A stretch of DNA of 58,329 bases from an uncultured Bdellovibrionales bacterium (GTDB taxonomy: Bacteria; Bdellovibrionota_C; UBA2361; OMII01): the NCBI GenBank assembly GCA_964654585.1, contig CAZZJR010000004.1, forward strand, positions 13,157-71,485, in the 5' to 3' direction. The translations under genes were made by a program, and so were the position numbers. Positions 8,203 through 43,417 of the stretch are shown piece by piece. Position 1 is the first letter of the stretch. Each line of letters begins with the position of its first letter. The notes under the pieces are model-generated. The model did not search any database, was not told the DNA's origin, and saw nothing but the letters and a program-made list of their open reading frames with translations.

Positions 8203-9561
8203 TCACGACGGCGTTGCAAACGACTCGTCCACATCCACATCAACAATAATTTTTGACTCTACCAGGTAGCGGTAGAGGTGCTGGTTGACGTGTGCTAGCG
8301 AAAGATTGTCAGCGCGCACCATTCCGGCTGCCGGGAAGGAGATGCGGCTGGTGTCGAAGTTCACAAGCTCTAGGTACGAAGAGAAGAGCTTGGATTCTAC
8401 CGGGTACACGAGCAGGTGAACCTGCTGCTGAAAGAGGCGGGCGGAGGCTTCGAGCACTCCGCCACTGAGCAGGGCGTAGCGGTCATCCTCAAGCAGCAGC
8501 GGCAGGAGGGCAGAGCTGACCACAAAGCCGAAGGGCGAGGTCGAGTACCGGCGCAGGTACTGAGTCAGGTGAAAGAACTGCGAGTAGGTGCTAACCAAGA
8601 TATTGTGATGCTGCTTCGAGAGCTGCTCGACGACGTCAAGCACTTCATCATCAGTTGACTGTTGCGTGCGCAAGATGTTGTTGAGCGAGAGCTCAAGAAC
8701 GTAGGCAGCGTCTTTCTCTGCGCCCTCTCCGAAGGACTGGAGCTTGGCATTGCACTGCTGCGCTAGGTCAGGAAACATGTGGTGCAGGGCCCGGAAGGAG
8801 CCGCGCTCAAGCAGGATCGGGCGCTTGTGGAAGAACTCCGTTGGCGGAAGAGGCTGCTGGTCGGAGTCGAACAGGATAGCGTTGGCGAGCCCCTTGCGCA
8901 GCAGCGCGATGGTAACCAGTCGCGGGTCAAGCCCTGCGAAAAGCGGTCCGGAAAGCTCGACGTAGTCAACCTCTACTCTACCCCCAGCAAGGGAGTCGAG
9001 CAGGCTAGGGAGTAGGGCGTTGATGTCGTCGCTGAGGTAGAAGGCTCCGTAGGCGAGGTTGACTCCCAAGACACCTAAAGCTTCTGACTGCCGAACCGAG
9101 TCTTCGTCGGTCATGTTTACGTGCAGGAGTATCTGGCTTGGTTCGGCTTTGGGGCTACCCTGGAAGCGGATCCCCATCCATCCGTGGCTCTCGTTAGTTC
9201 CGGCGAAGTTTCGTGCGGATACCGTGTCGGCGATTGTAAAGAACCCGGTCTCAGCACCGCGTGAGGGTCCAAGCCGTTCGACCAGCAGACTGAACTCGTG
9301 TGAGAGCATCGAGATGAGGCGCTCTTTAGAGACGTAGCGAGAGGCTTTGCCGTAAATACTGTCGCTCACGAGCATGTCGTACGCTGACATAGACTTGGCG
9401 ATCGTGCCGGAGGCAGCACCGACACGGAAGAACCAGCTCGCGATCTCCTGCCCGGCTCCGATCTCTGCGATCGTGCCGTAGCGCTGCTGGTCGAGGTTTA
9501 TGTGGAGCGCCTTGTGGTGCGGGTCAAGTGTGTCTGTGTTTAGCTTCGGAGCTACCGTCAT
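8203..9561 (-). CDS. Conserved cytoplasmic protein of the nucleotidyltransferase-like family often labelled nicotinate-nucleotide adenylyltransferase or (wrongly) TonB-dependent receptor
   Basis: Family motifs KALHINLD...YGTIAEIGAGQE..WFFRVGAASGTIAKSMSAYDM..SD.IYG, FADTV-like TIADTVSARNF, HGWMGIRFQ, ERGSFR. ATG at 9561 chosen. Confidence 0.7.
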   Translation of the reverse strand: MTVAPKLNTDTLDPHHKALHINLDQQRYGTIAEIGAGQEIASWFFRVGAASGTIAKSMSAYDMLVSDSIYGKASRYVSKERLISMLSHEFSLLVERLGPSRGAETGFFTIADTVSARNFAGTNESHGWMGIRFQGSPKAEPSQILLHVNMTDEDSVRQSEALGVLGVNLAYGAFYLSDDINALLPSLLDSLAGGRVEVDYVELSGPLFAGLDPRLVTIALLRKGLANAILFDSDQQPLPPTEFFHKRPILLERGSFRALHHMFPDLAQQCNAKLQSFGEGAEKDAAYVLELSLNNILRTQQSTDDEVLDVVEQLSKQHHNILVSTYSQFFHLTQYLRRYSTSPFGFVVSSALLPLLLEDDRYALLSGGVLEASARLFQQQVHLLVYPVESKLFSSYLELVNFDTSRISFPAAGMVRADNLSLAHVNQHLYRYLVESKIIVDVDVDESFATPS

Positions 9562-21763: not shown

Positions 21764-23557
21764 TTAACGGTCGAAGCCGATATTTGCGGCAGCATTCTCC
21801 GCGCCAATGATCTCGCTCCGCAGGCGCGCGTTGAAGAGCTGGCCGGCCGCGAAAATGATGCGCGGGTCCCCAGCTTTGCTCCCGTCGGGTCCGTCGCGCA
21901 GGGGAACGGCGACGTCTATTCGCACTATGCCGCCGCCGCTGGATCGCGGGAAGCAGAGGCGCAAGCCCACTCCCACGTCGCTGTAGACGTCATCGGAAAA
22001 GAGCTCAGTGATTGAGTTTGAGTTTGCTGCGCCGATATCGACAAACGCGGCGGTCCCCAAGCTTACGAGCTGGAAAACGTCGTCCGCTAAGTGAGTGCGC
22101 TCCTCAAGATTAAGCACGAAGCGTTTGTCACCAGAGAAGGTGTTTATATCATAGCCCCGTAGTCCGGTGTCAGCTCCTAACAGGAGCTGTCGATCCTTGT
22201 CCAGCTTTTCGCCGAAATCGAGGTAGAACTGGCTTGCGAAGGTGTGCCGTCCTAGGAATTGCTCACCCATGAAGAGGTCTCCGATCACGGAGTAGTATTT
22301 AGCTTCTCCGCGCAGCAGCGTGTTCTCAACTTGGTCCTGAGCTATTCGGGTGGACCCGCCGATCTCGCCACGCAGGAAGGAGCGTTCAGTGGTCTTCCAG
22401 CCGCGGCTGCGGTTTGCTGTTGCGAGGACTGCGTTGTACAGGGAGCCCAGAGACGTTGGGGCAACCTGCATCAGTACCAACGACTCGTCGCCGAGGTTGT
22501 AGTCTTCCGGGCGGTCAAACCGATCGATGTAGTTCATAGTGATGAACTTTGGCTGAACTGACTGGTACTGGAAAAGGGGGCCGTTGAAGCGTCGGTCCGT
22601 CGGCAGGTCGGCTGGATTGTTGCTGACGGTTGATGGGTTTAGGTCCAGGTCTTTGTAGTCTTGTTCAGTCGCCTGGTAGAAGCTCGCATTGTCGTAGCCG
22701 AAGCCCACCGAGTAGCGCTGCGACAGGATCGTCTGGCCCTTGAAGATACCGGTGTACGGATCGTCCTCCTCAGCCGGGTGAGCGCCCTTTCCGGCGAAGG
22801 TGTAGAGAGCCGTGAAGTCGTCGAGGTGCTGACGAAAGATGTACGTTTCGGTGCCGGCGTACCAGAGTCGACCGACCGTGTTCTGCTTTCCAGCATCGAT
22901 CTGCCACGCGTCACGCTGCTCAAGGCTGCGGAAAGGGAGACCGTACACGAGTTCGTAGACGGTGCCGTCCGAACGCTCTGCTATCCCGACATCCATGTTG
23001 TGTAAGGTGCCGAAAGCCTGCCGGTCGCTGACGGCGAAGCCGTACGAAGTACGGGACGCCTGCTCAATGTAGCGCCAATCAACCCTCGTCGCGCCGCCAC
23101 CGAGGTTTGAGTCGGTGAGGCCGACGCCGCGGTTTGTCTGGCCGGTGCCTGACGAGTAGCTGAGGAAGGGTATGAGCGTCCAGGCATCGCGGGCGTACAC
23201 CGCCACGTCGACTGCATCGCCGTCGAATGTTGGCACGACACGGATTTCACGTAGGTATCGTATCAACCGCAGGTTTCGCTCGAACTGCTTGAGGAGGTAC
23301 GGGTCGAATCGGTCGCCCTCTTTAAAGAGTAACTCATTTCGAATCACGCTCTCGTGAGTCTTGTACTTGAGGGATTCGGCAATCTTGTAGGGAGTGCTCG
23401 AATAATCCTCAAAGATGTCGTTGATTTTGATCGTGATGGAGCGAATGTAACGCTTCCCGGGTTTTACCAGACTCGGGGCCGGATTCTGGGCAAGGACAGG
23501 GGAGACCGCCGAAAAGAGCAGCACGAGGAGCACTAAGATGCGTTGAAAAATCGACAT
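21764..23557 (-). CDS. Omp85/BamA-TamA-like outer-membrane beta-barrel protein (single POTRA), 597 aa
   Basis: Signal peptide; POTRA-like THESVIRNELLFKEGD; loop-6 motif LRGY (DTGLRGYDINTF); AFVDIG and DVGVGLR strands. Confidence 0.82.
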   Translation of the reverse strand: MSIFQRILVLLVLLFSAVSPVLAQNPAPSLVKPGKRYIRSITIKINDIFEDYSSTPYKIAESLKYKTHESVIRNELLFKEGDRFDPYLLKQFERNLRLIRYLREIRVVPTFDGDAVDVAVYARDAWTLIPFLSYSSGTGQTNRGVGLTDSNLGGGATRVDWRYIEQASRTSYGFAVSDRQAFGTLHNMDVGIAERSDGTVYELVYGLPFRSLEQRDAWQIDAGKQNTVGRLWYAGTETYIFRQHLDDFTALYTFAGKGAHPAEEDDPYTGIFKGQTILSQRYSVGFGYDNASFYQATEQDYKDLDLNPSTVSNNPADLPTDRRFNGPLFQYQSVQPKFITMNYIDRFDRPEDYNLGDESLVLMQVAPTSLGSLYNAVLATANRSRGWKTTERSFLRGEIGGSTRIAQDQVENTLLRGEAKYYSVIGDLFMGEQFLGRHTFASQFYLDFGEKLDKDRQLLLGADTGLRGYDINTFSGDKRFVLNLEERTHLADDVFQLVSLGTAAFVDIGAANSNSITELFSDDVYSDVGVGLRLCFPRSSGGGIVRIDVAVPLRDGPDGSKAGDPRIIFAAGQLFNARLRSEIIGAENAAANIGFDR

Positions 23558-23882
23558 CGTTATCTTGGCAGCCGTTCGCCCTGCGGAGAGCGAACAAGAC
23601 GAAATTCCTCAATCTTTACGATGCAATTATCAAGATTTACGGTCCCGAAGAAGACCCGTGCCCAGCGAGATTTGCCGCAAAAAATCGGGTTCCGAAGGGC
23701 GTTGGTACCAACGCCTAAACTGGTCGCAGGGGCTGGGGCGGGCGACTGCATTGTCGTCGCGTCGGAGTCGCAACAGCTGCGAGACTGAGTCGGTGTTCTA
23801 CTTTTTAGCGGGCGTTGCTGCCGAAAATTATACTCATCTGAATTCGTTGACGTATTTCGGAGGGGTAGCTATCGTTCGGCGG

Positions 23883-25166
23883 ATGACCTCCTGGAGTTTC
23901 TCTCGAAAGATAGCCCTGCGGTACCTCTGGAGCAGGCGCTCGGAGGCGTTCATCTCGATTATAACGGTTATATCGGTGCTCGGCGTCGCGATCGGCGTGA
24001 TGGTGCTTAACATCGTTATGGCGGTGATGAGCGGGTTCGAGACGGAGCTACGCGAGAAGATAGTAGGCACCGATTCCCACATTGTGATTAGCAGCCGAAA
24101 CTCGGCCTGGATAGAGGACTGGCGCAGTGTTGCGGGAGCTGTGCAGGGAGTAGCGGGCGTAAAATCCGTTTCGCCATTTACGTACCACCAGGTGCTGATC
24201 CGTTCGCAATCACGAGCATCTGGGGTTCTGCTGCGCGGGATCGAGAAGGGCAGCGCCTCGGCCGAGCAGGTGAAGAGCTACCTCGGCCCAAAGCAAAGTC
24301 TCGATGCGCTCTTTGATCCGCCGACAGTCACTGTGTTGATGGCATCAGGCGAAGAGAGTGAGGCTTCCATCCCCGGCATACTGCTTGGTCGCTCGCTCGC
24401 CCAGACGTTGGGTGTGTTCGTTGGAACTCCGGTGTCAGTTCTCTCTCCGCAGGTAAGCTCAACACCTTTCGGCCTAGTGCCGAGTTTCCGCCGCTTCGTT
24501 GTTTCCGGGACCTACAGCTCCGGGCTAGTCGAGTATGAGAACGGAGTGGCGTACATAAGCCTCGAAGAGGCCCAGCGATTTTTCGGCATGAATGGAGGCG
24601 TCACGGGGCTTGAGGTCCGGATCGGGGATGTAAATGAGGCGCCGGTGCTCGCGAAACAGATCCTAGATACGCTCGGAGGAGCTGGATCGAATTTCATCGT
24701 CCGGGACTGGACCGCAACCAATCGGCCGCTCTGGGACGCTATTCAGCTCGAGAAGCGGGTGTACTTCATCGTGCTGCTTCTGATCATCGTGATGGCGAGC
24801 TTTTCAATTATTACAACGCTCATAATGATAGTGATCGAGAAACGAAAGGATATCGCCATCATGAAGACGCTCGGAGCGTCAACGAAGAGCGTGAGCCGCA
24901 TCTTCCGCATCCAAGGAGCGGTGATAGGAGGTCTCGGCACCCTGCTCGGGTTGCTGCTTGGTTTCCTCGGCTGTGTTGGGCTCAAGAAGTTCGGATTCCC
25001 GATCGACGAGCGCATCTTTCAGATGTCTCAGCTTCCGGTTCAGATCGACCCACTAAATTTTGCGCTGGTCGGCATCTCTGCGTTCCTCATTTGTTTCTTC
25101 GCCACCGTCTATCCGGCGCGCCGTGCTGCGAGCCTCGAGCCGAGTGAGGTGCTGCGCTATGACTGA
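23883..25166 (+). CDS. lolC: Lipoprotein-releasing ABC transporter permease LolC/E
   Basis: IALRYL..., VLNIVMAVMSGFETELREKI, EKRKDIAIMKTLGAS, YPARRAASLEPSEVLRYD motifs. Confidence 0.93.
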   Translation: MTSWSFSRKIALRYLWSRRSEAFISIITVISVLGVAIGVMVLNIVMAVMSGFETELREKIVGTDSHIVISSRNSAWIEDWRSVAGAVQGVAGVKSVSPFTYHQVLIRSQSRASGVLLRGIEKGSASAEQVKSYLGPKQSLDALFDPPTVTVLMASGEESEASIPGILLGRSLAQTLGVFVGTPVSVLSPQVSSTPFGLVPSFRRFVVSGTYSSGLVEYENGVAYISLEEAQRFFGMNGGVTGLEVRIGDVNEAPVLAKQILDTLGGAGSNFIVRDWTATNRPLWDAIQLEKRVYFIVLLLIIVMASFSIITTLIMIVIEKRKDIAIMKTLGASTKSVSRIFRIQGAVIGGLGTLLGLLLGFLGCVGLKKFGFPIDERIFQMSQLPVQIDPLNFALVGISAFLICFFATVYPARRAASLEPSEVLRYD

Positions 25167-25893
25167 TCGTCGGGAGCGAGCCGGAGTTCGGCTCGGCGTG
25201 GAGCTGCGTAACCTTACCAAGCGCTACCGCGATGCGGATCGCGATTTAACGGTCATTAGTGGCCTCACGTTTTCGTTCCCTGAGCAGGGGACGATTGCGA
25301 TCATTGGGCGATCCGGAATCGGAAAATCGACTCTGATGCACCTGATAGGTGCCCTCGATACGCCATCGGAAGGAGCGGTCCTCTTCGGCGGCCAAGACGT
25401 GAGTGCGATGGGCTCTGATGAGAGGGCAGCCTTCCGTGCGCGGAATGTCGGATTTATTTTTCAATTTCACCACCTTCTCCCTGAGTTCTCTGCCGAGGAG
25501 AACGTTGCGATGCCGCTCATCATGTCAGGCATGCACGAGGGTGAGGCGCGCGCCGAAGCGGCCGCCTTGCTTAGCCGCATGGGGCTTGCGGAGCGCGCTG
25601 CACACCTTCCATCGCAGCTCTCAGGCGGTGAACAGCAGCGTGTTGCGATAGCGCGCGCGCTCATCACGAAGCCGCGCGTGGTGCTGGCAGATGAGCCGAC
25701 TGGGAACTTGGATGTGCGCACCGCTACCGAGGTGCAGAAGCTTCTGCTGGAAATGAACAGAGAGCTAGACAATACGCTGATCGTCGTGACCCACAACGAA
25801 GAGTTAGCACAGAGCATGGACATGGTCGTAGAGATGACGCCGGGTGGAGCGCTCGTTGAGCACCGCAAGGCGAGGCGAGTGCCGGAGGAGTGA
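25159..25893 (+). CDS. lolD: Lipoprotein-releasing ABC transporter ATPase LolD
   Basis: Walker A GRSGIGKST, LolD motif GFIFQFHHLLPEFSA, LSGGEQQRVAIARAL, DEPTGNLD; overlaps lolC. Confidence 0.93.
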   Translation: MTDRRERAGVRLGVELRNLTKRYRDADRDLTVISGLTFSFPEQGTIAIIGRSGIGKSTLMHLIGALDTPSEGAVLFGGQDVSAMGSDERAAFRARNVGFIFQFHHLLPEFSAEENVAMPLIMSGMHEGEARAEAAALLSRMGLAERAAHLPSQLSGGEQQRVAIARALITKPRVVLADEPTGNLDVRTATEVQKLLLEMNRELDNTLIVVTHNEELAQSMDMVVEMTPGGALVEHRKARRVPEE

Positions 25894-28196
25894 TGAGGAG
25901 AGTCCAATTCTGGAGTCTGGCGCTGTGCGTTTTGCTCGTTGCAGCGGTCGTGACCGCGCACCCCGCCGCTGCCCAGGGAGGCGAGTCGTACGTTGTGCAT
26001 GGCGTCGAGATCGAGGGGAATAGGCGTATCGATACGGGCGCTGTCATGTCACAGCTGGCAAGTGTGCCGGGGCGAGTTACCGCGGCGCAGCTGAGCGATG
26101 ACGTAAAGACGCTCTACAACTCCGGGTATTTCGACCAGGTTCAAGTGTCAGTTGTTCCGCGCGGGGATGGCTCCGTAACGGTCAAATTCTCCGTTTCCGA
26201 GAAGCCCATCGCCAGGAAGATCTTCATCAAAGGAAACGACGAGGTAAGTGAAGATGACCTGAGTGAGGTGCTGAAGCTGGATGGCAGGCGCTTCGTTGAT
26301 CGAGCAAAGATTCAGGCCCTCATCCGGAAAGCCACAGCGTACTACCAGACGCAAGGCTACTACGACGCCTCGCTCGACTACTCAACTACTCCGGTTGGAG
26401 ACAACGAGGTGGACGTCACCTTCGACGTAAAGGAGGGGAAACTGTACCACGTGCGGGAGGTAGTGCTTCAGGGTGTAGCTGATCTCGATGAAGACGAGAT
26501 GCGGGCGGTTCTGCAGACCCAGAGGTACAAGTGGTGGAGCTCATGGCTCTTCGGCACCGGAAAGGTGAGTGAGGAGATGACTGAAGCGGACAAGCAGGTG
26601 CTGCGGCAGTACCTGCTCGACCACGGATACATTGAGGGTAATGTCGGAGAGGCTTCGATAGACAAACGCGATGACGGGCTGTACGTCGTGTTCGACATCT
26701 CAGAGGGAGAGCAGTTTAAGATTGGAAAGATCACGGCAGCAGGCGACCTTGTCGATGGCTCCGAGGAAAAGACGGTTGAGGACCTCAAGAGTGAGCCGGG
26801 TGACGTCTTTAGCGCTTCCAAGGTTCGGGCGGATATCTTCACTATCACTGATCGATTCGGTGATGAGGGTTACGCTTTTGCAAACGTGGTGCCGAACTCC
26901 GAGATTCACCGCGACGAAGGCACGGTAGACCTTGCGTTCACAAGCACAAAGGGCAATCCCGTGAAGATTGGCAAGATTACCATCTCGGGCAACGAAAAGA
27001 CGTATGACAACGTCATCCGGCGAGAGATGCGAATCGAGGAGCAGCACCGTTACAGTGGGACCAAAATTCGCCGCAGCCAGACCCTGCTGCAGCGTCAGGG
27101 GCTCTTCGAGGAAGTGAATATTACCAACAAGCCAACCTCGGACCCCTCAGTGGTCGACCTAGACGTCAACGTCAAGGAGGGAACGACGGGCAGCTTCACT
27201 GCAGGAGCCGGATACTCCACCGCCAACGGAAGTCTCTTTAATACCAAAATCTCTGAGAATAACCTTTTTGGAACGGGGAATAAGCTTAACCTGAACCTTG
27301 ATTTCGGTAGTCAGGTTTCAAACCAGGTGCTCTCATTCGATAATCCACGCGTCAATGATAGCTTCGTTTCGGCCGGAGCCGACCTTCTCCGCACGACTCG
27401 GCAGTACCAAGACTTCAATCGCGAGCTCGAAGGAGGCTCTACTACCGTCGGCTACCCGGCTGAGCTGATTTTTGGCAAGTGGGCAGAGGATATGTCTGTT
27501 ACCCTTAAGTACGAAATGCTCCGCATCAATATTCGGGACGTCAATCCAGATTCTGCGCAGCTCGTTAAAGATTCTCAGGGATACTCGACGTCATCTGCGT
27601 TTACTCCAGCTCTCAATCGCAGCACGATCAATAATCCTACCAACCCAACTCGCGGCTCACGTCAAAATCTTTCGGTGGAGATAGCGGGAGCGGGCGGCGA
27701 CCAAGATTTTTGGCTCTTTGAGGCTAGGAACGCCTGGTACCATCCTATTTGGGAGGGAGAGGAGGGCGATGTAACGTTCGCAAACCGCACCTCATTCGGG
27801 TACGGAGAGAGCATGAACGACAATCCATTCCCGCTCTTCCGCCGATTCTTCCCGGGAGGATTGAATTCGGTGCGTGGTTACCGGAACCGCACGCTTGGTC
27901 CTACCGATATTAACGGGCAGGAGTATGGAGGTAGCAAACAGCTGATCAACAACGTCGAGGTCATCTTTCCGCTTGTGAATTCCGCGGGATTGCGCGGAGT
28001 AGTATTCTACGACGTCGGTCAAGCGTACGATGACAATCAGGCGATCGAGATCCACGACCTCCGCCAAGCAGTGGGCTACGGTATCCGTTGGAACTCTCCG
28101 ATGGGACCGATTCGGTTTGAGATCGGGTATCCGATCAACCGCCAGCCGGGCGAAGAGGCGAAGCAGACTATGTTCTCGTTCGGCGCCCCTCTCTAG
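25893..28196 (+). CDS. bamA: Outer-membrane protein assembly factor BamA
   Basis: Five POTRA-like repeats (IEGNRRID, IKGNDEV, ISGNEKTYDNVIRRE), VRGY, WNSPMGPIRFE and terminal FSFG. Confidence 0.95.
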   Translation: MRRVQFWSLALCVLLVAAVVTAHPAAAQGGESYVVHGVEIEGNRRIDTGAVMSQLASVPGRVTAAQLSDDVKTLYNSGYFDQVQVSVVPRGDGSVTVKFSVSEKPIARKIFIKGNDEVSEDDLSEVLKLDGRRFVDRAKIQALIRKATAYYQTQGYYDASLDYSTTPVGDNEVDVTFDVKEGKLYHVREVVLQGVADLDEDEMRAVLQTQRYKWWSSWLFGTGKVSEEMTEADKQVLRQYLLDHGYIEGNVGEASIDKRDDGLYVVFDISEGEQFKIGKITAAGDLVDGSEEKTVEDLKSEPGDVFSASKVRADIFTITDRFGDEGYAFANVVPNSEIHRDEGTVDLAFTSTKGNPVKIGKITISGNEKTYDNVIRREMRIEEQHRYSGTKIRRSQTLLQRQGLFEEVNITNKPTSDPSVVDLDVNVKEGTTGSFTAGAGYSTANGSLFNTKISENNLFGTGNKLNLNLDFGSQVSNQVLSFDNPRVNDSFVSAGADLLRTTRQYQDFNRELEGGSTTVGYPAELIFGKWAEDMSVTLKYEMLRINIRDVNPDSAQLVKDSQGYSTSSAFTPALNRSTINNPTNPTRGSRQNLSVEIAGAGGDQDFWLFEARNAWYHPIWEGEEGDVTFANRTSFGYGESMNDNPFPLFRRFFPGGLNSVRGYRNRTLGPTDINGQEYGGSKQLINNVEVIFPLVNSAGLRGVVFYDVGQAYDDNQAIEIHDLRQAVGYGIRWNSPMGPIRFEIGYPINRQPGEEAKQTMFSFGAPL

Positions 28197-37422: not shown

Positions 37423-38688
37423 CTACACTCCCTCGACGCGGACGATGTGGTAGTTCTTCTTGCCACTGCGCAGCACGATGAAGCCCTTCTCGAGGAGCTT
37501 AGTGTCTCGCACCTTAATCGATTCGTCCGAGACTCGCTCATTGTCGAGGTATATTCCGCCACCCTGCACGAGGCGACGCGCCTCTCCCTTCGACTTCGCT
37601 ACCGTCGAGGCGAGCAGCGACAAGAGGTCGAGCTCGTTCGCCTCCTGGCGCGATACCGTCGTGGCAGGTGCATCTGCAAAAAGCTCAAGGAGCTGCTCTT
37701 TCGTTAGGTCCTCGGCGGAGCCGCTGAAGAGCGCCGAGGCAGATCGCCTCGCTTCGGCGGTAGCTTCGGGCCCATGCACGAGGTCGCAGAGCGCATCAGC
37801 CAGAACCTGCTGTGCCGCTCGCTGCTCGGGGTGAGCCTTCACCGACGCTTCCAGCTCTGCGATGCGCTCGCGGCTCTCAAGGGTGAAGACCTTGAGCAGC
37901 CTAACGACATCTGAATCCGGGACGTTGAGCCAGAACTGGTGAAATTTGTAGGGGCTCGTCATTGAAGAGTCGAGCCACACTGCATTGCCCTCGCTTTTGC
38001 CGAACTTCTTCCCGTCGGAATTTGTGATAAGCGGCGTGGAGAATGCGAAAGCCTCCTTCTGTAGCTTGCGGCGAATGAGCTCAAGTCCGGCAGTGAGGTT
38101 GCCCCACTGGTCCGAGCCGCCCACCTGCAATTTACAGCCGTTGTTCTGGAAGAGGTGCATGAAGTCAAAAGCCTGGAGCAGCATGTAGCTAAACTCAGTG
38201 TACGAGATTCCGTCCCCTGAGAGCCGGCTCTTCACGGAGTCCTTCGCGAGCATGTAGTTGACAGTGAAGTGCTTGCCGATGTCGCGAAGGAACGCCAAAA
38301 GAGATACATCTTTAGTCCACGTCATGTTGTTGACGAACGTTGGCGATACTGCGCATCCACTCCGCGCCCAGAGCACGCGCGCCTGCGCCTCTTGCAGCTT
38401 TGTGTTTGAAGCAACCTGCTCGAGCTCTAACAGATTCCGCTCTGCACTCCTCCCGCCGGGATCTCCGATCATTCCCGTCGCCCCTCCGAAGAGAAGGATC
38501 GGCTTAAGCCCGGCGCGGGTGAGGTGAATGCCGACGATAAGCGGAACCAGATTGCCAACCTGGAGCGACGGAGCGGTGGGATCAAAACCCATGTAAAAAG
38601 CGTCTCCAGCCTTCACCTTTGAGAGCGCCTCAGGATCGGAGATGTCCTGGATAAGACCGCGCCACTTTAGCTCTTCTAACAGGTTCAT
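37423..38688 (-). CDS. tyrS: Tyrosine--tRNA ligase
   Basis: GFDPTAPSLQVGN (HIGH variant), QVGGSDQWGN, KFGKS, C-terminal S4 domain. Confidence 0.97.
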   Translation of the reverse strand: MNLLEELKWRGLIQDISDPEALSKVKAGDAFYMGFDPTAPSLQVGNLVPLIVGIHLTRAGLKPILLFGGATGMIGDPGGRSAERNLLELEQVASNTKLQEAQARVLWARSGCAVSPTFVNNMTWTKDVSLLAFLRDIGKHFTVNYMLAKDSVKSRLSGDGISYTEFSYMLLQAFDFMHLFQNNGCKLQVGGSDQWGNLTAGLELIRRKLQKEAFAFSTPLITNSDGKKFGKSEGNAVWLDSSMTSPYKFHQFWLNVPDSDVVRLLKVFTLESRERIAELEASVKAHPEQRAAQQVLADALCDLVHGPEATAEARRSASALFSGSAEDLTKEQLLELFADAPATTVSRQEANELDLLSLLASTVAKSKGEARRLVQGGGIYLDNERVSDESIKVRDTKLLEKGFIVLRSGKKNYHIVRVEGV

Positions 38689-38767: not shown

Positions 38768-39907
38768 ATGAATCCAGCCCTGCCCACCTCAATCGTTAAC
38801 GCCCTCAACGAGCGAACGCAGGAGGTCGCGTTGCGTACGCTGGCAGTTAACCAGGGTGGGGTAGACCTGTGCTCGAACGACTACCTGGGCCTGGCCCGGA
38901 TCTTGGGTCGGCAGGCAGCCATCGGCAGAAACTCGGGGGGAGCGACAGGATCAAGGCTTGTTAGCGGGAATACCGCGGAGCATGAGAACCTCGAGAGCTT
39001 TTTGGCGGCGTTTCACGGCTCTCAAGGGGCGCTTCTTTTTGGCTCAGGATACGAAGCGAATATCGGATTGCTCAGCGCTCTCGGCGGACGACACGACACA
39101 GTGATTTACGACGAGCTGGTACACGCGTCAATGCGAGACGGCGTCCGTCTGGGGCAGGCGCGCTCATACTCGTTCCGCCACAACGACCCCGAGGACCTAC
39201 GGCAGAAAATGAAAGCAGCGCGGGGCGAGATTTTTGTTGCTGTGGAGTCGCTCTACTCGATGGACGGACACGAGGCGCCACTACGGGAGCTTGCAGGAGT
39301 GTGCCGCGAGAAGGGGGCATTCCTGATCGTCGATGAGGCGCACGCAACCGGCGTGTTCGGTGAGCGAGGAGAGGGGCTCGTGCAGTCCAAAGGTCTTGGC
39401 GACGAGGTTTTCGCCCGTGTTCACACCTTCGGAAAAGCCTTGGGATTTCGTGGAGGCGTCGTTGTTGGCTCCGCTGAGCTGCGTCAGTACCTGATAAATT
39501 TCTCTCGCCCCTTTATCTACTCAACCGCACCAGATTCCCTGACGCTTGCCACGATCCGCTCTGCGTACGAGCTTCAGGCAGGGATGGATGACGAGCGGTT
39601 GGTGCTCTTCTCCCTGATTCGGGCGTTTCGAGCGATGCGGCAGGAGTTCCCTGCGCTCCAGTTTTTGGAGTCGGAGTCTCCGATTCAAGGCATCGTTGTG
39701 CCAGGAAACCACTCGGTAGTTGCGGTTGAGTCAGCCCTCGCGCAGCAGGGCTACTTCGCCCGGGCGATTCGCTCTCCCACTGTCCCCGCGGGCACAGAGA
39801 GGCTACGTGTCTGCTTGCACGCATTCAATTCCGAGGCTCAATTGAGAGAGGCGCTTGAGGTCGTGCAAGGCGCTATCGCACCGACCAGGGTGATCGTGCA
39901 TGGTTAA
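38768..39907 (+). CDS. bioF: 8-amino-7-oxononanoate synthase
   Basis: CSNDYLGL, GATGSRLVSG, DELVHASMRDG, ESLYSMDG, VDEAHATG, HTFGKALG, RPFIYSTA. Confidence 0.92.
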   Translation: MNPALPTSIVNALNERTQEVALRTLAVNQGGVDLCSNDYLGLARILGRQAAIGRNSGGATGSRLVSGNTAEHENLESFLAAFHGSQGALLFGSGYEANIGLLSALGGRHDTVIYDELVHASMRDGVRLGQARSYSFRHNDPEDLRQKMKAARGEIFVAVESLYSMDGHEAPLRELAGVCREKGAFLIVDEAHATGVFGERGEGLVQSKGLGDEVFARVHTFGKALGFRGGVVVGSAELRQYLINFSRPFIYSTAPDSLTLATIRSAYELQAGMDDERLVLFSLIRAFRAMRQEFPALQFLESESPIQGIVVPGNHSVVAVESALAQQGYFARAIRSPTVPAGTERLRVCLHAFNSEAQLREALEVVQGAIAPTRVIVHG

Positions 39908-41075
39908 AAAGCCACTCCTCATCCGGTCACTTGCGACAGTCTCTCCACTAGGCTCCTCTCGCGCCGAGGCTGCCGAATCCTTGCGCCGCGCAGAACCAAA
40001 ACCGGCTAAGCTAGGGGAGAGGGCGGTGTTTAGGCTCTCGCCCACCGGTGAAGCCGCGCTGCAAGCGGAATCGTTACGGAGCGGGGCGCGTCCGCCCGAT
40101 AGAGCCGTGCTGTTGGCACTGGCGGCAGCGCGACAAACGCTCAGTGAGCTGGAGCGGCAAGAGCCGATTGGGTGTGTCACGATCGGTTCGGCGCGCGGAG
40201 CAACAGCAACGCTCGAAAGCACGATCTTGCAGCAGCATGCGGGCAAGGTCGCGCTCTCCCCAGAAACGTCTCCGAAAACCACGGCCGGGGGGATTACCTC
40301 TTGGGTGGCCCAGGAGCTTCTCGCTGGCACGGACGCGGCGATAGGAGTCGCGGCGATCGCAACGTCGATGACGTGCACCTCCGCCCTCCATTCTTTGCTG
40401 GTTGCGAAAGCGTTTATCGATGCCGGGATGGCAGAACGTGCGCTGTTCGGGGGCACGGAGTCATGCTTGACCCCCTACACGGTTGCGCAGCTTGAGGCGT
40501 TGCGAATTTACTCGCAGGGAGACAGCGATTGGCCCTGTAGGCCCTGCTTCGCCTCAGAACAGAGGAGCAACTCAGTCGTGCTGGGGGAAGGGGCTGGCAC
40601 TGCGCTGCTTTGCAGAGACGACTCCATTCGGGAGGGAGACCTCCGGGTTGCCGGGATAGGCTGGGCGCTCGAAGCAGCCCCGTCGGCAACCGGAATCTCA
40701 GAGGATGGCGCTGGATTCGAGCTGGCGATGCAGCGCGCAACAAGCAGCCTGCCGGCTGACGTCAGGGTCGAAGCCGTCATCTTGCACGCTCCCGGGACAA
40801 CGAAGGGCGACGCGGCCGAGTTGCGAGCCGTGCAGAGACTCTTCGGTACGGTTCCGGTGTGCACCACCAAGCATTTGACGGGCCACACCTACGGCGCCTC
40901 TGGGATGGTAAGTCTGGCGATGGCCCAGTGGCTTCTTGAGGGGGGTGGGTGGCAGGGTTTCCCGTACCCCAGCACCGCTCAGAGCTGCCGCTTCGAGCAG
41001 CCCAGAGCAGTGCTGGTGAATAGTGCTGGCTTCGGCGGAAACTCAATCAGTGTGCTGGTCACAAAGCCCTTCTAG
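39900..41075 (+). CDS. Beta-ketoacyl-ACP synthase (FabF/KAS)-like protein
   Basis: Active-site Cys in SMTCTSAL, LGEGAG, HAPGT, TKHLTGHTYGASG, NSAGFGGNSIS; overlaps the bioF stop. Confidence 0.82.
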   Translation: MVKKPLLIRSLATVSPLGSSRAEAAESLRRAEPKPAKLGERAVFRLSPTGEAALQAESLRSGARPPDRAVLLALAAARQTLSELERQEPIGCVTIGSARGATATLESTILQQHAGKVALSPETSPKTTAGGITSWVAQELLAGTDAAIGVAAIATSMTCTSALHSLLVAKAFIDAGMAERALFGGTESCLTPYTVAQLEALRIYSQGDSDWPCRPCFASEQRSNSVVLGEGAGTALLCRDDSIREGDLRVAGIGWALEAAPSATGISEDGAGFELAMQRATSSLPADVRVEAVILHAPGTTKGDAAELRAVQRLFGTVPVCTTKHLTGHTYGASGMVSLAMAQWLLEGGGWQGFPYPSTAQSCRFEQPRAVLVNSAGFGGNSISVLVTKPF

Positions 41076-41160
41076 GGGCTTCCAAGCGGAATATCGGCGC
41101 CCAGTATTCATTTCGCCCACTTACCGCTCTTGCCGGGACGACTCGTAACCCGGTGTATGG

Positions 41161-41189
41161 TTGAATGTTGCTCGGTTTTAGGCTACAAC
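41161..41189 (+). promoter_or_regulatory. Sigma70 promoter TTGAAT-N17-TACAAC for rpmG
   Basis: Canonical spacing about 80 nt upstream of the ATG. Confidence 0.55.
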
Positions 41190-41271
41190 CCACGGTTCTG
41201 ATTCGGCGCACCTGCTCTTCTCCAGTCGGGGGACACTCAGCTAACGGCGCCAGCGTATTGAGGGATACCGT

Positions 41272-41508
41272 ATGGCCAAGGCCGCAAAAGAGACATTCTA
41301 CCTCGTTTCCTCCGAAGGGACTGGATTCTTCTACATAAATCGCAAGAACAAGAAGAAGGGCAAGGGGGAGAACAAGCTCAAGGTTCGCAAGTACGATCCG
41401 ATCGCTCGTAAGCACGTGCTATTCGAAGACAAGAAGCTCTCTAAGCTCAAGAAGAAGTACGTTGCCGGAGGAGCCACCGAGAGCAATTCGGGTAAGCAGT
41501 CTGAGTAG
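41272..41508 (+). CDS. rpmG: 50S ribosomal protein L33 (Cys-free form) with C-terminal extension
   Basis: LVSSEGTGFFY...KLKVRKYDPIARKHVLFED. Confidence 0.92.
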   Translation: MAKAAKETFYLVSSEGTGFFYINRKNKKKGKGENKLKVRKYDPIARKHVLFEDKKLSKLKKKYVAGGATESNSGKQSE

Positions 41509-41524
41509 CAGCTCAGGTGCTCCG

Positions 41525-43417
41525 GTGGTAGCTATTACACAGAGCGAGGAGCCGTCTCAGCAATCCGAAGATTCCACGGTCAGCGAAGCCTCGACTGAAA
41601 CAGGCGTCGCCCCACCCCGTCAAAGCGCCGGTCGAACCCTTATCAGTCGGCAGCCGGAGCGCAGTATCCCATCGTCGACAGTACGCACACTCCTGGGGCT
41701 TTCATTGCTCGCCCTCGCGGTCGTCGCCTACACACTAACGGAGAGCGGTCTAGAGCCGGAGCGACAGCAGATGTTATCGCTGTCCCTGTCCGGTGTCGCG
41801 CTTGTGGTTGCTCTCTTTGAAGCTACCTCTATTCTCTCGACGAGGGACAGGCTGGAGAGCCCGCTGGAACTTTTCGCGCCGGCTGGAGTGTTTCTGCTAG
41901 CGCTTGGGGGTTTGGGAGATGGTTATGTTCCCTCTTTTAGCTCATCGATTTTGATCTCCACTGGGCCCGTACTTGCGGCCGGGGTTCTGTTGCTTGCTCG
42001 CGCTGCGGTTCCGAGTGCGGTTCTCACGGCAAGCACTGATCATCTCTTACTTCCACCGGGCGTAGAGGTCGGAGAGGCCGCCAAGGGGGAGGCGCTCTCG
42101 CTTTCCAGTGGTGTGATCGTAGCGGCTGATTCTCGGATAGAGCGAGGTTGCTGCAGTGTTCTTGAGCGACAGCTCTCTCCGGAGACACGTTTTCGCATCA
42201 AGGAGGAGGGCGATGTCCTCTTCGCAGGCTCCGAGGTAATCGGTGGGTCTGCCGAGGCAGTGGCGCTTTCAAGCTCGGAGAATTCGTGCTTGCGGAGCCT
42301 TGAGAAGCTTGTGTTCTCAAATGTCGAAAAAGCGGGCGCATCGCTCCATCAGGAGGACCTACGTTCTCGCAAAGCGACCGCGTACGTCTTGGTGTTCGTA
42401 TCTGTGGCCTGCGCAATCCTGTGGGATGAGCGAGTAGGTCGCCCATGGGATACGCTGGCAGCGTCAGGACTGGTGCTATTTGCGGGGATTGTCTGCCAGC
42501 TTGCAGATATTTTGTACTCGCGCCAGCGCTCTATGGTTCGGCGCTGGGCTAGGCAGGGATTCATTGCTGCCTCTGAGAGCGCTGTTCGGGAGTTGGCATC
42601 TGCGACAAAAGCCCTGTTTGACCCCAGCCGAGTTGACCTCGGCTCCTTAGTTCGGGTTCGAGAGCTGGAGATCCTCGACGATCGAGTCGGAAGGCAGGAA
42701 TTGACAGCTTGCCTCGCGACTCTCTTGGGACGGGCAGAGGAAGTTGCGTTGGTTGCGGCCGGTGATTTCTGCCAGAAAGAGTGCTCAACCGTGGTGCCTG
42801 AGCGGGTCCTCGAACTCCACGAGATCGCCGGCATGGGAATTAGTGGAAGAGTTAAGGGCGTATCAGTTCTAATAGGAACCGAGGAGCTGCTGCTCGATAG
42901 GGGAGTGCTCATTCATCCATCTGAAAGCAACGTCGAGAGCGCTGACAACGAGCGTCCGCTGCTAGTGGCGGTTGGTGGAGAGCTTGTCGCCCGGTTCTGG
43001 GTAGTGTTTGGACAGCGGGCGCTGGTCGAGGAGGGGGCTGACCACGCGGTGTGGCACGGCTTGGTTTCTGCGGGGATCTCGGTTGGTGTTCCGGGGGAGA
43101 TTAGTCCGACGACGATCCTCGTTCGGGGTCAGGAATCAGATGTGCTGGGCCGTTCTGCAGAGATACAGGTGTCGCATTTTGCAGGGGAGCGGTTCGAACT
43201 CCCGCGCTCGACAGTTATCGCGTTGACACGCAACCTGAGCGACCTTCCGTCGCTCATTGCCGAATCCCACCGGTACCTGCGGCTAGTGGAAAGGGCTCGG
43301 ATACTGGTAGCGTTCGGAGCCTTCCTGTCGGTCGCGACAGTCTTTTTCGGCTTCTTCTCCCCGCTTGTGGCGAGTGTCTCTCTTGGGCTCGTGGCTGCTG
43401 TCTTCGCCCTTCTGTAG
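41525..43417 (+). CDS. Degenerate P1B-type (heavy-metal) ATPase-like membrane protein
   Basis: Colinear P1B scaffold (VAADSRIERG..V.E, GDVLFAGS, GFIAASESAVRELA, EIAGMGISG.V.G..VLIG) with catalytic motifs altered. Start uncertain (41462-41525). Confidence 0.7.
   Translation: MVAITQSEEPSQQSEDSTVSEASTETGVAPPRQSAGRTLISRQPERSIPSSTVRTLLGLSLLALAVVAYTLTESGLEPERQQMLSLSLSGVALVVALFEATSILSTRDRLESPLELFAPAGVFLLALGGLGDGYVPSFSSSILISTGPVLAAGVLLLARAAVPSAVLTASTDHLLLPPGVEVGEAAKGEALSLSSGVIVAADSRIERGCCSVLERQLSPETRFRIKEEGDVLFAGSEVIGGSAEAVALSSSENSCLRSLEKLVFSNVEKAGASLHQEDLRSRKATAYVLVFVSVACAILWDERVGRPWDTLAASGLVLFAGIVCQLADILYSRQRSMVRRWARQGFIAASESAVRELASATKALFDPSRVDLGSLVRVRELEILDDRVGRQELTACLATLLGRAEEVALVAAGDFCQKECSTVVPERVLELHEIAGMGISGRVKGVSVLIGTEELLLDRGVLIHPSESNVESADNERPLLVAVGGELVARFWVVFGQRALVEEGADHAVWHGLVSAGISVGVPGEISPTTILVRGQESDVLGRSAEIQVSHFAGERFELPRSTVIALTRNLSDLPSLIAESHRYLRLVERARILVAFGAFLSVATVFFGFFSPLVASVSLGLVAAVFALL

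Follow-up and report, generated by a model that had tools for sequence, protein, structure and literature searches.

The DNA analysed here (the window) is a stretch of 58,329 nucleotides (nt) from contig CAZZJR010000004.1 of an uncultured freshwater Bdellovibrionales bacterium (assembly GCA_964654585.1). It contains two overlapping genes, both on the + strand. The upstream gene is bioF, encoding 8-amino-7-oxononanoate synthase (38768..39907; 379 amino acids (aa), ATG at 38768, TAA at 39905-39907). The downstream gene (39900..41075, ATG at 39900) encodes a biotin-linked ketoacyl synthase of the FabF fold, 391 aa in length and with matches to PF00109 and PF02801, which is referred to here as the KAS (protein P0002). 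As read from the sequence, the stop of bioF and the start of the KAS gene share 8 nt on the + strand (ATGGTTAA, 39900..39907), which implies translational coupling. A first-pass annotation, made from the letters of the window, had described this overlap and both open reading frames (ORFs), and our reading agrees with it; family scans of the neighbouring genes likewise gave no bioC, bioH or bioW adjoining the pair, as it had stated. The two genes form a conserved and probably functional biotin gene pair, and the comparisons described below support a predicted role for the KAS in the opening steps of biotin synthesis, to which it would have been recruited as a condensing enzyme.

The identity of the upstream gene was examined with family models and by pairwise comparison. 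TIGR00858 was the best family for the BioF protein, with a score of 335.3 bits, about 90 bits over the models for serine palmitoyltransferase (SPT) and KBL, and below its own cut-off of 426.45. Compared with E. coli BioF, the protein has 37% identity over 349 aa (E = 2e-55), and with the BioF proteins of full bio operons (loci L043, L047 and L052) its identity is 48-55%. Two sequence motifs are present on the + strand, a DEAH motif starting at 39332 and an FGKA motif, with the lysine that binds pyridoxal phosphate (PLP), starting at 39428. It had been allowed at first that the BioF-like enzyme might prove to be an SPT or another alpha-oxoamine synthase (AOS); the identity to E. coli BioF, the retained PLP lysine and the closeness to the operon BioF proteins speak for a BioF. 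There is a second AOS-like gene in the genome, on the - strand of contig C134 (1086-2264, locus L002), which scores 141 bits to the BioF model and 132 bits to the SPT model. It has a proline at the aligned position of the PLP lysine (FGP, not FGK), adjoins a ParA-like gene, and is perhaps inactive or devoted to some other function. In this genome, which also holds bioD, bioA and bioB, the bioF of the pair stands alone as an intact BioF candidate.

By sequence and by model, the KAS is a predicted FabF-fold enzyme and not the housekeeping FabF. It scores 82.2 bits with the FabF equivalog TIGR03150, for which the cut-off is 493.75, and its best NCBIfam model, PRK09185, is also matched far under the cut-off. 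A true FabF is encoded elsewhere in the genome, on contig C73 (626.7 bits with TIGR03150), as is a true FabH (341 bits). Identity of the KAS to E. coli FabF (EcFabF, taken from NC_000913.3) is 22-25%. An AlphaFold2 model built on 27 relatives had a predicted local distance difference test (pLDDT) value of 85 and a predicted template modelling (pTM) score of 0.89, and matched FabF structures in Foldseek with TM scores of 0.77-0.83. The residues C159, H296, K324, H329 and F378 align to C163, H303, K335, H340 and F400 of EcFabF, and are kept in 127-128 of 128 members of the KAS family. The codon of the active-site Cys159, invariant in 128/128, is at 40374..40376 (+ strand). His296, Pro298, Lys324 and His329 are encoded within 40785..40886 (+ strand); the two histidines and the lysine are invariant, and Pro298 replaces the phosphopantetheine-binding Thr305 of FabF, a change found in 128/128 members. 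The KAS is thus predicted to retain all the parts required for decarboxylative Claisen condensation with malonyl-acyl carrier protein (malonyl-ACP). The first-pass annotation had noted the catalytic Cys and His residues, which C159, H296 and H329 match. It had also called the N-terminus shortened and divergent. The N-terminus is divergent, since PF00109 aligns only from residue 69, but it is complete, the alignment to EcFabF beginning at residue 1; the difference in length (391 aa against 413 aa for FabF) stems mostly from the loss of about 15 residues close to the C-terminus. In a quick tree the KAS family was split from FabF by a long branch with full support, and consisted of a clade with the tyrS/bioF-KAS arrangement and a group from full operons. 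Fusions of BioF with KAS or of KAS with ACP, sought at E ≤ 1e-40, were not found, which is weak evidence.

The acyl pocket of the KAS differs in character from that of FabF. In FabF, I108 and F202 form a back gate at about C7-C8 of the bound acyl chain, and the methyl ester of glutaryl-ACP, which on the active-site cysteine has roughly the length of a C7 acid, reaches this gate (PMC9006962). The position of Ile108 is occupied by arginine in 128/128 members of the KAS family and by isoleucine in both FabF proteins compared. In the window this residue is Arg99, with its codon at 40194..40196 (+ strand), as placed by the alignment to EcFabF. Further changes within the family are L111 to Thr, A162 to Thr, F202 to Leu or Met, F133 to Thr, Ser or Ala, and V134 to Ser, the last in 128/128 members; F398 of FabF is Ala in the KAS. 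The hydrophobic pocket of the FabF type, with its I108-F202 back gate, is therefore not retained. We infer a polar, cationic pocket, specialised for chains ending in a free carboxylate, in which the invariant arginine would be placed to meet the far end of a C5 dicarboxylate.

The KAS locus was scanned in one genome per species, giving 40 loci, of which 38 were informative, and in 37 of these 38 the KAS gene adjoins one or more bio genes. Within the clade of the window (28 loci, L016-L042 and L046) bioF is directly upstream of the KAS gene in every case, and because it is kept throughout, the adjacency is not due to chance. Between the two genes in relatives, overlaps of 4-8 nt are frequent and overlaps or gaps of less than 50 nt recur. 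The pair of this clade sits between tyrS and rpmG wherever the contig extends that far, and the nearest relatives of the window are metagenome-assembled genomes (MAGs) of freshwater Bdellovibrionota. Relatives of the KAS at 34-40% identity lie inside full biotin operons. The order is bioB-bioF-bioD-bioA-KAS in Rufibacter ruber, bioF-bioD-...-bioA-KAS-bioB in four Flavobacteriaceae MAGs and KAS-bioB-bioF-bioD-bioA in a Bdellovibrionales MAG, and an Ignavibacteria MAG has bioA-KAS. The first-pass annotation had pointed to a similar KAS gene in bio operons of some Bacteroidetes, and such genes were indeed located (L043, L044, L049, L051, L053 and L054). In the bio operons of Rufibacter ruber, Flavobacteriaceae, Ignavibacteria and other Bdellovibrionota the KAS gene is the only extra gene, the remaining ORFs being unrelated to pimelate synthesis. 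None of the KAS operons examined contained a private ACP, reductase or dehydratase gene, and no ligase or transferase gene recurred among them. The sole informative locus without a bio gene beside the KAS gene is that of a Bacteroidales MAG (L048, 6674-7903). There the KAS gene has DUF4476 and YkuD-domain genes as its neighbours, and its product is on a long branch in the tree.

The distribution of the KAS was then compared with those of BioC and bioB in 124 Bdellovibrionota genomes, a co-occurrence check similar to one that the first-pass annotation had proposed. Matches to the KAS were accepted at E ≤ 1e-40, which excludes ordinary FabF, and to BioC at E ≤ 1e-25. The KAS was present in 59 genomes, BioC in 22 and neither in 43, and no genome (0/124) had both. 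Among the 88 genomes with bioB, the KAS was present in 56, BioC in 21 and neither in 11; among the 36 without bioB the corresponding numbers were 3, 1 and 32. The KAS and BioC are thus mutually exclusive and the KAS tracks bioB, although because kin genomes are not independent these counts overstate the statistics and should be read as patterns. In four families where the trait is patchy (f11, f13, f15 and f30) the KAS is found in exactly the genomes which bear bioB, and in several genomes of the same order the KAS gene adjoins bioB on the same contig. Five distant genomes whose bio operons include the KAS gene likewise have no BioC, the best scores being 52-67 bits. The 11 genomes with bioB and with neither the KAS nor BioC imply that other, unrecognised pimelate routes exist; three of the 11 are incomplete genomes of the window's own genus. 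At the thresholds used this group takes in G037-G039 (f3), G041-G042 (f4) and G005 (f23). G005 alone among the 124 genomes has a CaiB-type CoA-transferase (401 bits), a hint that pimelate is made there by a route of the BioZ type; in the others it may come from yet another source.

The remaining biotin genes of this genome are on other contigs, bioB on C9 and bioD-bioA on C62. Runs of N (100 and 200 bases) interrupt bioB (C9:22531-23487, or 8532-9488 of locus L014) and the junction of bioD and bioA (C62:6332-7919, locus L015), with the result that the N-terminal parts of BioB, including the radical-SAM cysteines, and of BioA are unreadable in the assembly. Only profile positions 104-306 and 86-418, respectively, are matched; decay of bioB and bioA was considered as the cause and rejected, the N runs explaining the truncation. 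Known routes to pimelate were then sought genome-wide. The best BioC match was 48 bits, compared with a cut-off of 185, so that a bioC elsewhere in the genome, which the first-pass annotation had named as a finding that would count against its proposal, was not encountered. BioW gave no match. There is no cytochrome P450 in the genome and therefore no BioI. The family III CoA-transferase CaiB (PF02515, CoA_transf_3) is encoded neither in this genome nor in any of the 59 Bdellovibrionota with the KAS. Extra FabH-like paralogues are present, none of them near bio genes. One of these, on contig C35 (cluster at 22427-26398, locus L059), scores 254 bits, below the fabH cut-off, and is accompanied by a MaoC-dehydratase/FabG fusion, a hydrolase of the metallo-beta-lactamase fold and another FabG-like short-chain dehydrogenase/reductase, in what looks like a separate lipid or polyketide-like pathway. 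It was considered as a hidden BioZ and set aside; the cluster is without bio genes and nothing supports that role.

The KAS is the strongest candidate for a route, as yet undescribed, to the seven-carbon arm of biotin that dispenses with the methyl ester of BioC and BioH. The suggestion of the first-pass annotation, that it is a FabF-fold analogue of BioZ, is supported as far as computation allows by the linkage to bio genes, the exclusion of BioC, the co-variation with bioB, the missing known routes, and the intact triad with its arginine-bearing pocket. The reading we favour, tentatively and with somewhat less than even confidence, is that bioF and the KAS gene form a coupled biotin unit in which the KAS builds pimeloyl-ACP de novo from malonyl-ACP in two rounds. 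The KAS would load malonyl from malonyl-ACP onto Cys159 without decarboxylation, and would form 3-oxoglutaryl-ACP by condensing it with another malonyl-ACP. Conversion of this to glutaryl-ACP would fall to the housekeeping FabG, FabZ and FabI, and the KAS would then extend the glutaryl-ACP once more to 3-oxopimeloyl-ACP. After a second passage through FabG, FabZ and FabI, the resulting pimeloyl-ACP would be condensed with alanine by BioF. Arg99 would mask the charge of the free carboxylate, as methylation by BioC does in E. coli, and in that case neither BioC nor an esterase of the BioH type would be needed. In this scheme the choice of substrates, how many rounds take place and the recruitment of housekeeping enzymes for the reductive steps are all inferred. 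E. coli FabG, FabA and FabI process 3-oxopimeloyl-ACP bearing a free carboxyl group (PMC7645780); since the reductive enzymes accept such a substrate, it is the condensing step which needs special provision. Perhaps, then, one remodelled FabF is enough for de novo synthesis of pimeloyl-ACP with free carboxylates, the back-gate arginine replacing both the disguise provided by BioC and the esterase BioH, though we would put this no higher than a plausible suggestion.

A glutaryl primer, as used by BioZ, is the other of the two live options for the chemistry of the KAS. The enzyme would carry out a single condensation, joining a catabolic glutaryl thioester (glutaryl-CoA from the breakdown of lysine or 2-oxoadipate, or glutaryl-ACP) to malonyl-ACP to give 3-oxopimeloyl-ACP, which the housekeeping enzymes of fatty acid synthesis (FAS) would then reduce to pimeloyl-ACP. 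The evidence from linkage, distribution and active site applies equally to this scheme, BioZ is a direct precedent for it (PMC7645780), and it fits the position of Arg99 better, since a glutaryl group is expected to end at about this back gate (about C7-C8; PMC9006962) and an arginine there is a better match for the carboxylate of a C5 (glutaryl) chain than for that of a C3 (malonyl) chain. Carriers that are predators or degrade protein should, by our reasoning, also be rich in lysine. The transferase of the CaiB type which is essential in BioZ organisms is absent here and from all the KAS-bearing Bdellovibrionota, however, and no ligase or transferase gene recurs in the KAS operons to take its place. 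FabF-type enzymes are normally primed by acyl-ACP, and no independent source of glutaryl-ACP is known (PMC7645780). In addition, the KAS excludes BioC, whose task spans both rounds of elongation. We consider the single condensation possible, and nearly as likely as de novo synthesis; the latter is preferred because FabF-type enzymes prime from acyl-ACP, because the KAS replaces BioC in its distribution, and because no glutaryl-CoA supplier of a known type is present. Several further points weigh against synthesis from malonyl-ACP. Thioesters of 3-oxoglutarate are beta-keto acids and prone to decarboxylation, and glutaryl-CoA could come from 2-oxoadipate. Residues 100-130 of the KAS model are of low confidence, and the geometry of Arg99 relative to Cys159 rests on the alignment to EcFabF. 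The assembly (2.97 Mb in 164 contigs) is 90.5% complete. The recently described diiron oxygenase route of BioE (PMC12704756) was outside the searches for known routes, and formally the extra FabH-like paralogues could still be BioZ-like enzymes. The relatedness of the surveyed genomes, mentioned above, tells in the same direction, and the literature yielded no paper describing this KAS family and no biochemical or genetic test of any member.

The other explanations are less probable. The KAS might be linked to biotin without building pimelate, as an accessory or editing enzyme or as a partner of BioF, with the pimelate made by an unrecognised gene elsewhere. The 11 bioB-bearing genomes without either the KAS or BioC would suit this explanation, as would the extra FabH-like paralogues and a BioE not covered by the searches. 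We regard it as unlikely, given that the triad, the lysine and the gating phenylalanine are so nearly invariant while the pocket is remodelled in a substrate-specific manner, that the KAS gene is the only extra gene in the operons, and that the exclusion of BioC is perfect, as functional replacement predicts; three of the 11 exceptions, moreover, are the incomplete genomes of the same genus. That the pair has nothing to do with biotin, and that the AOS and the KAS together make an amino-lipid, a sphingoid base or a signalling ketone, is suggested by its separation from bioA, bioD and bioB in this genome, by the score of the BioF protein below the curated cut-off and by the scores it also obtains with the SPT and KBL models. 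We think this very improbable: BioF is the top family by a wide margin, the likeness to E. coli BioF extends to the PLP lysine, the BioF proteins to which it is 48-55% identical come from full bio operons carrying the same KAS, and there is no other intact BioF candidate to accompany bioD, bioA and bioB, with which last gene the KAS co-varies. Least credible of all is an ordinary FAS paralogue, a second FabF or FabB hitch-hiking beside bioF. The FabF fold and the intact catalytic residues would be expected of such an enzyme, but 82 bits against a FabF cut-off of 494, a true FabF elsewhere in the genome, the long and fully supported branch apart from FabF and the replacement of pocket hydrophobics by Arg, Thr and Ser would not, and the distribution follows bioB and not lipid synthesis.

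BioZ is the closest functional analogue of the KAS as its role is proposed here. It is a 3-ketoacyl-ACP synthase of the KAS III (FabH) type found in alpha-proteobacteria (PMC7645780, PMC8024396, PMC12625853), and condenses glutaryl-CoA with malonyl-ACP, CaiB being essential as the supplier of glutaryl-CoA (PMC7645780). Both enzymes appear to be condensing enzymes recruited from fatty acid synthesis, and each is the only pimelate-arm gene in the bio operons of organisms lacking BioC/BioH, BioW and BioI. In both a primer with a free omega-carboxylate is presumed, and the product would pass to the housekeeping FabG, FabZ and FabI. They differ in fold and catalytic residues, the KAS being of the KAS I/II fold with Cys-His-His and BioZ of the KAS III fold with Cys-His-Asn. 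The primer of the KAS is expected to be carried by ACP whereas that of BioZ is carried by CoA, the KAS has no CaiB partner, and recognition of the carboxylate is probably by way of the back-gate arginine, for which BioZ has no counterpart. For a FabF-type KAS with a part in biotin synthesis, the nearest precedent is the extended bio cluster of Desulfovibrio, DVU2558-DVU2565, which includes the FabF-like DVU2563, FabG-like and FabZ-like genes and a dedicated ACP, and which RB-TnSeq (transposon sequencing with random barcodes) showed to be needed by Desulfovibrio vulgaris for growth without biotin (PMC545781, PMC10102598). In contrast, the KAS described here stands alone, without a private ACP, reductase or dehydratase, and its carriers include aerobes. 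With FabF/KAS II itself (E. coli structures 2GFW, 2GFY and 1KAS) it shares the fold, the dimer-type architecture, the Cys-His-His triad, the lysine and the gating phenylalanine, and differs in the pocket substitutions, the deletion in the C-terminal region and a distribution tied to bioB. BioC-BioH (or BioG, BioK, BioJ or BioV in place of BioH) occupies the same slot in the pathway and likewise makes pimeloyl-ACP with the help of FAS, and within the phylum BioC and the KAS exclude each other. The KAS route would do without methyltransferase or esterase, the problem of charge being solved inside the condensing enzyme.

Within the biotin pathway, synthesis of the pimelate arm is the only part that varies, and the map of it is still incomplete; the known solutions are BioC-BioH, BioI/BioW, BioZ and BioE. 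Many Bacteroidota and about two-thirds of the biotin-making Bdellovibrionota surveyed have the KAS and none of the known routes covered by the searches, which did not extend to BioE. If the proposed role is correct, the KAS would represent a fifth and minimal route to the biotin arm, common to Bdellovibrionota, many Bacteroidota and Ignavibacteria. It would follow that type II FAS rejects omega-carboxy substrates only at the condensing step, and that the specificity of a ketosynthase can be re-tuned by a single charged gate residue, which would be useful for the engineering of dicarboxylic acids. It would also close a gap for major environmental and host-associated lineages, and provide an annotation marker for biotin prototrophy.

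The genes surrounding the pair in the window are tyrS, a gene with an Smr domain, rlmD, rpmG and an ATPase-like gene. The divergent upstream neighbour, tyrS (37423..38688, - strand; TIGR00234, 363 bits), is in conserved synteny with the pair and marks the 5' boundary of the bioF-KAS unit. The 3' boundary is marked by an rpmG-like ORF for ribosomal protein L33 (41272..41508, + strand), the gene at the same position in relatives having a match to PF00471. A scan with a consensus promoter found no sigma-70-type promoter for the bioF-KAS unit, and terminator-like matches inside it were at chance level. A shared operator of the BirA type was sought in this genome ahead of bioF, bioB and bioD, the last two of which have no free upstream region, and no common k-mer of 9 or more linked bioF to the others. 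An ORF of 118 aa (41059-41415, - strand), antisense to the end of the KAS gene and to rpmG, has no family match and is probably not a gene. The gene downstream of rpmG (41462-43417, + strand) encodes a membrane protein of 651 aa which resembles P-type ATPases; its match to the E1-E2 ATPase family is weak (39 bits), and no P-type ATPase equivalog fits it clearly. The gene is kept in this position throughout the clade of the window, at 33-81% identity, and only there. It was considered as a part of the system and dropped, the association being one of synteny only, and the gene is not beside the KAS gene in L052 or the other distant operons. Its start is annotated at a TTG that overlaps rpmG; the true start probably lies further downstream.

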